Shown one piece after another: positions 2,359-5,205 of a DNA stretch of 64,000 nt. The DNA is taken from assembly GCA_963804955.1 (NCBI GenBank), contig CAWDSQ010000024.1, positions 160,001 through 224,000 on the forward strand, given 5' to 3'. A program made the translations under genes and the position numbers. The notes under the pieces are model-generated. The model searched no databases and was not told the origin of the DNA. It saw only the letters and a program-made list of their open reading frames with translations. The DNA is from an uncultured delta proteobacterium (GTDB lineage Bacteria > Desulfobacterota > WTBG01 > CAIYCZ01 > CAIRTM01). Each line of letters opens with the position of its first letter. The first letter of the stretch is position 1.

Positions 2359-2439
2359 GTAGGGCGGGTGCTAACCCGCCATTTTTAATTCATGATAACC
2401 CTTATCTGACTTATTGCGCGGCGGGTTAGCACCCGCCCT
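2359..2439. repeat. GTAG-type REP doublet (REPIN-like), copy 1; right REP interrupted by IS110
   Basis: GTAGGGCGGGTGCTAACCCGCC (2359-2380) and inverted GGCGGGTTAGCACCCGCCCT (2420-2439) around a 39-nt spacer; near-identical copy at 5114-5205. Confidence 0.85.
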
Positions 2440-2539
2440 TCTATGAGGACCGTTGTCAAGCCTCGGGTTAATTTTTTTTGTTTTTTTCTTTCTTTATCTT
2501 TTGATACTCATTCCGTTTTGGCCGGTTGGGCTTGTCGTT

Positions 2540-2705
2540 TTCCGGGAACCTTGCCCGGAACCACCTTCTATCCGTGCCGGTATTATAACCGTGCATCCAC
2601 ATACTGCGTGCGCCAATTGGCGTCAGTCCAACCAGTTTAAGAAGCCTTCAATCTACAAAGACGGTGCTTTTAGACCCAGGGCGGGTACGAAGGGCTTCAC
2701 CAACT
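2540..2705 (-). ncRNA. Candidate bridge RNA / seekRNA of the IS110 element (ends approximate)
   Basis: Two stem-loops carry guides matching the target (ACCCGCCCT at 2686-2678; TGTAG at 2657-2653) and the donor junction (AGTAT at 2605-2601; ATAGAAG at 2571-2565). Confidence 0.7.
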
Positions 2706-2745
2706 GGAATGCCTATCAAATCCTTTTCCTCCTGTTGTATGTCCT

Positions 2746-3888
2746 TTATGCCATCTTCAGTATCGCGCCTTCCGGCACGATGTCGTGATCAACATACTTC
2801 CACAGCGCTATGAGCAGTTTTCTGGCCAGCGCCACGATCCCTATTCGCCTCATTCGCTTGTTGCCCCCTCCAAAGCGCTCATGAAACCACGTGCTTAGCT
2901 TACTGCCAGGCTGCCATCTCAGCCATCCCCAGGCTAGCTCTATCAGCAAAGCTCGTATCCGCCGATTGCCCGCTTTGCTTATCCCTTGCTCAATCTGCAT
3001 ATCCCCGCTACTGTAGGGCATTGGCGCAAGACCCGCTGCACCTCCCACCTGCTTCACATTCTTGAATTCCCGCCAGCCAAAAAACTCATAGATCAAATCC
3101 CATGAACTGATCGGCCCAATTGCCCGTATCCGGGCAAGCTTGCTTACCTTGCGCATTTGTTCAGGACTTGCCGCAAGCTGCCGCTTCTTTTCCTCTTGTA
3201 TCTGCCTCAGCTGCCGGTCCAGCACCCCTATCCGTTCATACTCCCGCTTCATCTCCTGCACGATATGCTCTGGCAGTTTGCTTCCATCCCAGGCTCGCAC
3301 TTCTTCTAGCAGCTTCAGAAATTTACTGCCTACCTCTGCATGTATCCCATACAATACAAGTAATGACTTTATCCGGCTTACATGTGCTCCCCGTTCCTTT
3401 AACAGCCGATCCCGCTCTCGGTTGAGTCGCCGTTCATCTTCCTGTTCCTGTGTCGGAACCCGTACCACACTCCAGACTTTCTGCTCTCCTCCCAAGTGCC
3501 GTATCAGCATGGTTAACAACTTTAACCCATCTACCCGGTCCGTCTTGGCCCGCCGATGCCGCCGGTTCACTTCGATACTGGCCGAGTCCACCACGATATT
3601 CTTTATCCCTATGCTCTCCAAATACCGATGTATCCAAAACCCGTCTCGTCCCGATTCATAACAGCTGTATATGGCGCAATCTTCATCCAGGCTAAAATGC
3701 TTCCGGGCCTTGACCAGCTCTTCCTTAAACTCTTCAAGATCTGCTGATGTTATTGTTCGCTCCCTCCTGCGTTGCCCGTCCCCAAACGTCAGGTTCCATT
3801 TCTTGTTGGACAGTTCAAGGGATATGTACAAAACCTGCTTACCTGTGCTATTCTTTGCCTCGGTTTGGATCATTTGATTGTTCGCCAT
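2746..3888 (-). CDS. IS110-family transposase/recombinase (DEDD RuvC plus Tnp domain)
   Basis: ISLELS, CYESGRDGFW, KTDRVDG, and C-terminal GLAPMPYSSG...GISKAGN...VALARKL; SD AAAGGAG upstream. Confidence 0.95.
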   Translation of the reverse strand: MANNQMIQTEAKNSTGKQVLYISLELSNKKWNLTFGDGQRRRERTITSADLEEFKEELVKARKHFSLDEDCAIYSCYESGRDGFWIHRYLESIGIKNIVVDSASIEVNRRHRRAKTDRVDGLKLLTMLIRHLGGEQKVWSVVRVPTQEQEDERRLNRERDRLLKERGAHVSRIKSLLVLYGIHAEVGSKFLKLLEEVRAWDGSKLPEHIVQEMKREYERIGVLDRQLRQIQEEKKRQLAASPEQMRKVSKLARIRAIGPISSWDLIYEFFGWREFKNVKQVGGAAGLAPMPYSSGDMQIEQGISKAGNRRIRALLIELAWGWLRWQPGSKLSTWFHERFGGGNKRMRRIGIVALARKLLIALWKYVDHDIVPEGAILKMA

Positions 3889-3930
3889 GTTTGTCTCCTT
3901 TATGCTGAAAGTTATTGACGTGACTTTTTT

Positions 3931-3958
3931 AGCATATCCGAGACGTGACGCCTGTCAA
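3931..3958 (-). promoter_or_regulatory. Putative sigma70 promoter for the transposase
   Basis: Minus strand TTGACA-N16-TATGCT about 45 nt upstream of the start codon. Confidence 0.5.
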
Positions 3959-3959
3959 A

Positions 3960-4020
3960 TGATCCTTTCCTTCATAGTATCTACCGGCTAATACTTGATC
4001 CTTTCCTTCATAGTATCTAC
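3960..4020. repeat. Direct duplication of the 25-bp IS end
   Basis: TGATCCTTTCCTTCATAGTATCTAC at 3960-3984 and 3996-4020. Confidence 0.95.
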
Positions 4021-5113: not shown

Positions 5114-5205
5114 AGTTCGACGGGCGGGTGCTAACCCGCCATTTTTAATTCATGATAACCCTTATCTGACTTATTGCGGCGGGTTAGCACCCGCCCTTCA
5201 CACTG
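5114..5205. repeat. REP doublet, copy 2 (uninterrupted)
   Basis: Same inverted pair and spacer as 2359-2439; ends in ACCCGCCCTTCACACTG. Confidence 0.85.

Follow-up and report, generated by a model that had tools for sequence, protein, structure and literature searches.

The window, as the whole stretch of 64,000 nucleotides analysed here is called, contains an insertion sequence with a long non-coding end downstream of its transposase gene, and the question raised by this locus is whether that end encodes an RNA which selects the site of insertion. RNA-guided recombination of this kind, in which an RNA specifies both the target and the joined ends of the element itself, was first described in 2024. 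The element is in all likelihood an IS1111-type member of the IS110 family with a downstream target-guiding RNA, for which an RNA-guided insertion cycle is proposed. An earlier note on this DNA had called it a new candidate programmable RNA-guided recombinase. The assignment as an IS110-family transposase with guides holds; the novelty is only that of a new member, since the downstream RNA of IS1111 elements, their REP targets and their programmability were already known. The locus adds a further example of a known mechanism and organisation, and no new mechanism. The features of the element are collected in Table 1; all motif coordinates given in the earlier note were confirmed on the sequence.

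Table 1. Features of the element, its predicted RNA and its target, numbered along the window.
Feature	Position	Strand	Remarks
Insertion sequence body, 1541 bp	2440-3980	(-)	same ends in four full genomic copies
RE, end downstream of transposase gene, 306 nt	2440-2745
LE, end upstream of transposase gene, 92 nt	3889-3980
Transposase (bridge recombinase), 380 aa	2746-3888	(-)	E25, E78, D117, D120; motif GLAPMPYSSG
Target, right arm of REP-like inverted-repeat pair, GCGGCGGGTTAGCACCCGCCCT	2419-2439	(+)	same arm beside all four copies
Left target and core, ACCCGCC-CT	2431-2439	(+)
Core CT, RE side (AG in gene direction)	2438-2439	(+)
Core CT, LE side	3981-3982	(+)
Sub-terminal inverted repeat, RE copy, CTATGAGG	2441-2448	(+)
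Sub-terminal inverted repeat, LE copy, CTATGAAGG	3969-3977	(-)	8/9 positions match RE copy, one extra base
Predicted bridge/seek RNA, approximate boundaries	2522-2707	(-)	covariance model match 2526-2722, 135 bits
Target-loop closing stem, 5' arm, GAAGCCCTTC	2689-2698	(-)	helix 1; 8/10 pairs change on both sides
5' target guide, ACCCGCCCT	2678-2686	(-)	9/9 to plus-strand left target and core
Target-loop inner hairpin, GGG...ACC	2663-2677	(-)	helix 2; 97% paired
3' target guide, TTTGTAG	2653-2659	(-)	TGTAG (2657-2653) is the reverse complement of plus-strand CTACA
Target-loop closing stem, 3' arm, GAAGGCTTC	2641-2649	(-)	pairs with 2698-2689
Small hairpin between loops, CGCC-AATT-GGCG	2611-2622	(-)	helix 3; 84% paired
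Left donor guide, AGTAT	2601-2605	(-)	complementary to first five LE bases, ATACT
Donor-loop inner hairpin	2575-2595	(-)	helix 4; 96% paired; 5/8 pairs change on both sides
Right donor guide, ATAGAAG	2565-2571	(-)	7/7 to RE end and core
Hairpin after donor loop, CCGGG...CCCGG	2542-2558	(-)	single-sequence folds; sequence differs between relatives
TTGACA, -35 box of predicted junction promoter	2454-2459	(-)	read from sequence
TACTAT, -10 box of predicted junction promoter	3974-3979	(-)	read from sequence
Promoter-like site in LE, TTGACA-16-TATGCT	3931-3958	(-)	10/12 consensus; 1 site against a shuffle mean of 1.4

The ends of the element are visible in its junctions with the flanking DNA. On the plus strand the RE junction reads ...GCACCCGCC-CT, then TCTATGAGG..., with ACCCGCC as the bases before the core, and the LE junction reads ...CATAGTAT-CT, then AC. 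The CT core that had been proposed is present at both junctions, and the donor or circle junction ATAGTAT-CT-TCTAT had been derived correctly from the two. The target had been reconstructed as ACCCGCC-CT-ACA; the junction itself was right, but the triplet beside this copy is ACC, the ACA having come from a second, 24-bp copy of the element end at 3997-4020. The sub-terminal inverted repeats begin one and three bases inside the element ends, in keeping with the 7-17 bp repeats that define the IS1111 group; some relatives, L020 among them, have longer ones. In four runs, metagenome contigs that carry relatives 90-99% alike part from the window sequence at 2418-2430 and 3984, which brackets the same two ends. 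Alignment of the contigs from these four runs to the element gave no joints, neither of an empty site nor of a circle.

The transposase matches the NF033542 profile ('IS110 family RNA-guided transposase') at 171 bits against a cut-off of 140, with residues 22-367 covering positions 2-339 of 343, and the PF02371 transposase domain at 60.7 bits (cut-off 21.3). The N-terminal domain PF01548 reaches 25 bits, under its cut-off of 29. This match is weak across the clade, as three of five relatives score 20-33 bits and the scan gave no match in the relative L020 or the plasmid homologue L045, compared with 74 bits for IS5075 and 44 bits for ISSso6. The protein is 23% identical to IS5075. It also carries the C-terminal motif G-(L)-x-P-x4-S/T-G, described as a mark of the family (PMC11187229), in which G295 is invariant in the alignment. 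The only indication that the transposase is active lies in the four near-identical copies of the element.

In a MAFFT alignment with IS5075 and ISSso6, residues E78, D117 and D120 align with the last three residues of the canonical DEDD tetrad. The first catalytic position, where both reference proteins carry D, is occupied by E25, so that the Glu reported earlier within SLELS is indeed the counterpart of the canonical Asp. Among 34 related loci this residue is Glu in 28, Asp in four (L029, L031, L035 and L040, which form one subclade) and unreadable in two; the Glu is therefore a trait of the clade and not a defect of the window copy. A literature search for IS110 with 'EEDD' returned no papers, and the Glu variant may still have been described. 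Since the element has evidently multiplied, its conserved Glu suggests that the catalytic tetrad tolerates this substitution.

Four full copies of the element, 98-100% identical, are present in the genome (36 contigs, 87% complete). All four sit in one REP-like arm, with the arrangement GGCGGGTT[A/G]GCACCCG[C/T]CCT, IS, AC[C/A/G]; the triplet after the LE is ACC in the window copy and ACA, ACG and ACG in the other three. In the window, the partner arm lies at 2359-2380, and the two arms form 22-bp inverted repeats 39 bp apart, the second consisting of 2419-2441 plus AC. The arm motif GGCGGGTT[AG]GCACCCG is found at nine genomic sites, four of which contain the element, and the 11-mer ACCCGCCCTAC at three sites without an insertion. 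Copies at unrelated sites had been named as the observation that would speak against guided insertion; all four full copies and a truncated one are at matching sites. The truncated copy (G000:C7:252707-253003) is a 299-bp LE-side fragment, 93% identical, which includes the start of the transposase gene and is preceded by GATGTAG. Within about 40 bp after it lies an insertion-free REP arm resembling the insertion site on contig C30; this look-alike (G000:C7:253047) has a single CT and no insertion.

Some further observations concern the surroundings of the element. A second pair of 22-bp inverted REP-like arms, also about 39 bp apart, is present at 5114-5199 of the window, the first pair spanning 2359-2441. 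The left arm is followed by ATTTTT on the plus strand, and the arms may double as terminators. The region at 1063-2241 contains about ten tandem repeats of about 60 nt encoding ...ELVIANKELAFQNEEKEKRAA..., followed by a C-terminal stretch with a GGDEF motif. Its frame is divided into three overlapping ORFs, split by changes in the length of A-runs, and it could be a pseudogene, a phase-variable gene or a sequencing error.

Relatives for the study of the non-coding end were collected by a protein search with one genome per species, in which 59 stretches matched and 34 encode a relative at 39-58% identity. Alignment of the 300 nt past the stop codon (27 distinct sequences) revealed a conserved block with two hypervariable patches. 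The RNA had been placed 3' of the gene, and a conserved structured RNA is located there, within the RE. The formal RNA alignment comprised 24 of 35 sequences; five were left out as identical (L013-L016, L039) and six for want of the anchor motif ACG[AG]ATAG[AG]AG (L017, L024, L030, L041, L043, L044). A structure of 25 pairs in four helices, set by hand, was scored on it. Across the 24 sequences, 86.1% of the pairing cells are paired, against 34-47% when the 3' partner is slid by 1-3 columns, and 16 of the 25 pairs vary on both sides. For covariation the score is 0.392; the slid structures give 0.141 at most, and none of 500 shuffles reached the observed value. Some rows have the outer stem out of register, which depresses its figures. 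For the same reason RNAalifold found only 16 pairs when run on the raw MAFFT alignment, and was replaced by the hand-set structure.

Folding of the single sequence had been suggested as a check. The stability of the window RNA is no better than that of shuffles (z = -0.27, -1.49), and single-sequence folds are therefore given no weight as support; the stem 2689-2698/2641-2649 is nevertheless supported by the pair changes in the alignment. The other check suggested was a covariance model with a test of covariation between guides and targets. The model (R1) finds the RNA, matching all four genomic copies at 135 bits as well as L043, L045 (98 bits) and, partly, L024, and both target guides covary with their flanks, as described below. 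It gave no match to the IS5075 and ISSso6 loci, so homology with the RNAs of those elements cannot be claimed. Among the 4227 families of Rfam none matched the RNA, and the only hits were sub-threshold, microRNA-like chance matches on the REP palindrome. The RNA is present in two of 21 genomes of the host's taxonomic order, the window genome included, and in none of four genomes of the same genus, those being 76-90% complete. Such a patchy distribution is as expected of a mobile element.

The layout of the RNA proposed earlier, a target loop followed by a donor loop, is borne out; the target loop carries a 5' guide of 9 nt and a 3' guide of 5-7 nt. A candidate stem closing off the donor region, 7 bp or longer, is found in 13 of 19 loci, yet also in 29% of mismatched pairs, and is suggestive only. 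Tentatively, the donor region appears to occupy a branched junction flanked by hairpins, as opposed to a simple internal loop. The donor region of L024 (about 2760-2850) contains a tandem duplication of about 24 nt (GGGGAAAGCTTCCCCCGCTTTATC twice) directly before ATAGAAG, and this copy is probably decayed.

Read in the direction of the gene, the target loop runs from the outer stem through a 9-nt patch ending in CT, the inner hairpin and a patch ending in AG back to the outer stem. The 5' guide ACCCGCCCT is complementary to AGGGCGGGT, which follows the RE end, and the 3' guide TTTGTAG, which extends to 7 nt in relatives, is identical to the gene-sense flank before the LE. As in the IS1111 group, the guide that pairs with the gene-sense (top) strand comes first in the RNA, 5' of the bottom-strand guide. 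The earlier description of the order as IS621-like is correct only if the strand with the CT core is called top; relative to the gene direction it is reversed, as in the published IS1111 arrangement. The 4.26-Mb genome contains the sequence ACCCGCCCT 36 times, counting both strands, which gives about 0.001 expected occurrences in 306 nt of one strand.

To place the 5' guide match, the 730 nt downstream were searched with the reverse complement of the patch. The highest-scoring site, alone or tied, agrees at 7-9 of 9 positions and immediately follows ...CATAG[A/G] in the window copy, L011, L018, L019, L020 (tied) and L021, as well as in L025, L026, L027, L028, L038 and L042. In L012 the match follows the deviant end CATCGT, and the guide ends in CA where the flank carries the AG core. 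This locus belongs, with L013-L017 and L039, to one genome with seven copies, in which the RE end CATCGT mismatches the element's own ATAGAAG. The 3' patch matches at 7 of 7 positions directly before the LE start A[TC]NNTATG in L019, L020, L023, L032, L033, L036, L037, L038 and L042. Agreement of the 5' guide falls to 4-6 of 9 in L033-L037, which are more distantly related.

Both target guides covary with the flanking DNA. In a permutation test the ends were defined by motif, the near-duplicates L018, L027, L029, L040 and L042 were dropped, and the search windows (12 nt or 10 nt according to the guide) were equal for own and foreign pairs. The 5' guide matched its own RE flank at 7.41 of 9 positions and those of other loci at 3.93 (17 loci); for the 3' guide and the LE flank the values were 6.25 and 3.79 of 7 (16 loci). 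The summed score was reached by none of 20000 shuffles in either case. Four RE flanks were entered by hand, three from a motif scan and that of L019 from the guide match itself, and the L019 data point is circular for that reason. Some foreign pairs reach 9/9 because several elements share one REP-like target. Among the relatives, the guides vary together with about ten different targets.

One homologue, 50% identical, is found on plasmid pBB2 of Cupriavidus necator N-1 (L045; 230514-233438), where it is annotated only as 'IS110 family transposase'. Its guides AAGTGAGCC and CTTATAG match its own flanks. This copy adjoins a group II intron reverse transcriptase gene.

The flank beside the LE of the window copy, CCGGTAG, agrees with the 3' guide at 4 of 7 positions. 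The last 22 bases of the element and the following AC (3961-3984, GATCCTTTCCTTCATAGTATCTAC) are repeated at 3997-4020, after a spacer CGGCTAATACTT of 12-14 nt that is found nowhere else in the genome. This outer copy of the end abuts ACAGACTG, which agrees with the 3' guide at 6 of 7 positions, compared with only 4 of 7 for the inner flank. The repeated end may record a previous or aberrant recombination event that used alternative ends. A tandem duplication was considered as the origin of this 36-bp extra end copy and rejected because the second unit is incomplete.

The donor guides are conserved, and they covary in part only. Judged from the sequences, the RNA probably reads the donor through its second loop. 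An alternative is that the RNA guides the target only, as a seekRNA, while the protein reads the ends through the sub-terminal repeats and AGTAT and ATAGAAG are kept by structure or descent. The donor motifs are nearly invariant across the family, which suits this alternative and also makes covariation on the donor side weak. The right donor guide has only two variants, and in 18 of 19 readable loci the A or G of ATAG[A/G]AG is the one found at the RE end. The G form, as TAGGAG in the RNA, accompanies CATAGG-AG ends in six loci from two clades (L033, L034, L036, L037, L038 and L042). The single exception is L012, whose ATAGAAG disagrees with its RE end, a point for guidance of the target alone. 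The left donor guide gives a divided picture, being 5 nt long with frequent mismatches, one to two or more, in L011, L012, L018, L020, L036 and L037, whereas in L029, L031, L035 and L040 ends in ACCAT accompany TGGT in the RNA. In favour of the alternative, long sub-terminal repeats are characteristic of IS1111 elements, and their abundant transposase-bound RNA is short, at 82-96 nt (PMC11187229); against it, donor loops have been predicted for IS1111 elements (PMC11208160). Guidance of the target alone is considered unlikely.

A further alternative is that the non-coding end acts as DNA, in the form of a single-stranded hairpin or a target mimic, through DNA-DNA pairing and without RNA. The palindromic nature of the target itself would suit this, but the helices stay paired through G-U-type changes, which are typical of RNA, and the RNA of related elements has been reported to co-purify with the transposase and to work in trans (PMC11187229), so that pairing at the DNA level is very improbable. 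That the matches arose by chance, or are target DNA fragments captured by the element, is almost inconceivable, since TGTAG and AGTAT are short enough to be expected by chance in 300 nt but the 9-mer is not (about 0.001 times), the guides stand at fixed places in a conserved structure and covary with some ten targets, and the guide-flank permutation test contradicts it.

For a target-guiding RNA that also reads the donor, we infer a cycle covering the production and binding of the RNA, the formation of the circle and its promoter, the reading of the donor by the second loop and the strand-exchange chemistry. A circle would be released when the recombinase joins the two ends of the element through the core that they share (plus-strand CT, read as AG in the gene direction). 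With the ends joined through one core, the predicted circle junction ...CATAGA-AG-ATACTATG... would set TTGACA 17 nt from TACTAT and so form a promoter. The same boxes would be 19 nt apart in the Cupriavidus copy, and in relatives TGAC is retained immediately inside the RE end. The downstream end would then supply an RNA of about 190 nt that binds the recombinase. In the first loop of this RNA, ACCCGCCCT would pair with one target strand beside the core and TTTGTAG with the opposite strand on the other side of the core; in a second region, AGTAT and ATAGAAG would pair with the circle junction. Exchange of strands at the core would finally place the element in one arm of a REP-like palindrome.

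A scan of the surroundings of the RNA gave no sigma-70-like promoter or terminator, and the RNA may therefore be cut from a longer transcript. Processing from a longer transcript has been suggested for related elements (PMC12288879). A search of public sequencing runs listed no RNA run with the sequence of the element.

It is possible, though doubtful, that the clade is a distinct and deep lineage of bridge recombinases, apart from the characterised IS110 and IS1111 members, with a protein of about 380-390 aa, Glu at the first position, a sub-threshold N-terminal domain, a downstream RNA family of its own and donor strands in a branched junction. If so, and if active, it would provide an independent programmable recombinase with target guides of 9 and 7 nt, and the orphan copy of the end (about 20 nt) would be the trace of a side reaction between alternative ends. 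The peculiarity of the clade is its distance from characterised members, as seen in the 23% identity to IS5075, the 380 aa, the weak N-terminal match, the Glu and an RNA without a curated family match. The supplementary tables of PMC11208160 and PMC11187229 may already include members of it. Each bridge recombinase with readable guides is an independent starting point for programmable DNA insertion. As the guides can be read directly, about ten naturally paired guides and targets are available from this clade in environmental bacteria, together with the plasmid copy of Cupriavidus necator N-1. For annotation, the 306-nt 'non-coding' end becomes a predicted RNA gene and the REP-like palindromes its landing sites.

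Elements of the IS1111 type have already been described with sub-terminal repeats, a downstream RNA, this guide order, REP targets and an AG/CT core (PMC11187229, PMC11208160, PMC12288879). The downstream RNA, the sub-terminal repeats and the guide order have been shown experimentally for ISEc11, ISPa11 and ISKpn4, and the transposase-bound RNA from the downstream end of the family was found by experiment to be required for transposition and to be reprogrammable (PMC11187229). Bridge RNAs have been predicted in the RE of 93% of IS1111-group elements (PMC11208160). The present element resembles this group (ISEc11, ISPa11, ISKpn4 and ISPpu10; PMC11187229, PMC11208160) in its long non-coding end downstream of the gene, here 306 nt against 92 nt upstream. 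It also shares the sub-terminal repeats, the guide order, the core dinucleotide at both junctions, the use of repeats as targets (REPs, transposon ends) and the predicted promoter at the circle junction. It differs in the size of the transposase, 380 aa compared with the 330-350 aa given for the group (PMC11187229). The differences from IS5075 are the low sequence identity, the weak PF01548 match, the Glu at the first position and the failure of R1 to match the IS5075 locus.

Similar to IS621, the element has a target loop followed by a donor loop, a CT core within the guides and a recombinase of the same family (PMC11208160, PMC11208158). The structure PDB 8wt6 matches the C-terminal part of the transposase (E = 0.037). 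In the IS621 RNA the 5' side of the loop pairs over 8-9 nt with the bottom strand and the 3' side over 4-7 nt with the top strand, core included, and the guide lengths seen here, 9 nt and 5-7 nt, equal these (PMC11208160). The IS621 RNA lies upstream, in the sense of the CT-core strand, whereas here the RNA lies downstream and antisense to that strand. The target-matching segments of IS1111 elements have been reported in the opposite order to those of IS110-type elements (PMC11187229).

ISPpu9 and ISPpu10 of Pseudomonas putida differ from the present element in host, sequence and position of the RNA, and ISPpu9 is reported to lack a hybrid promoter at its junction, of the kind predicted for the present element (PMC12288879). 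In their behaviour they resemble it: both insert into REPs, preferably into inverted pairs (BIMEs), carry AG at both ends and have extra end-like boxes and partial modules nearby (PMC12288879), as does the element in the window.
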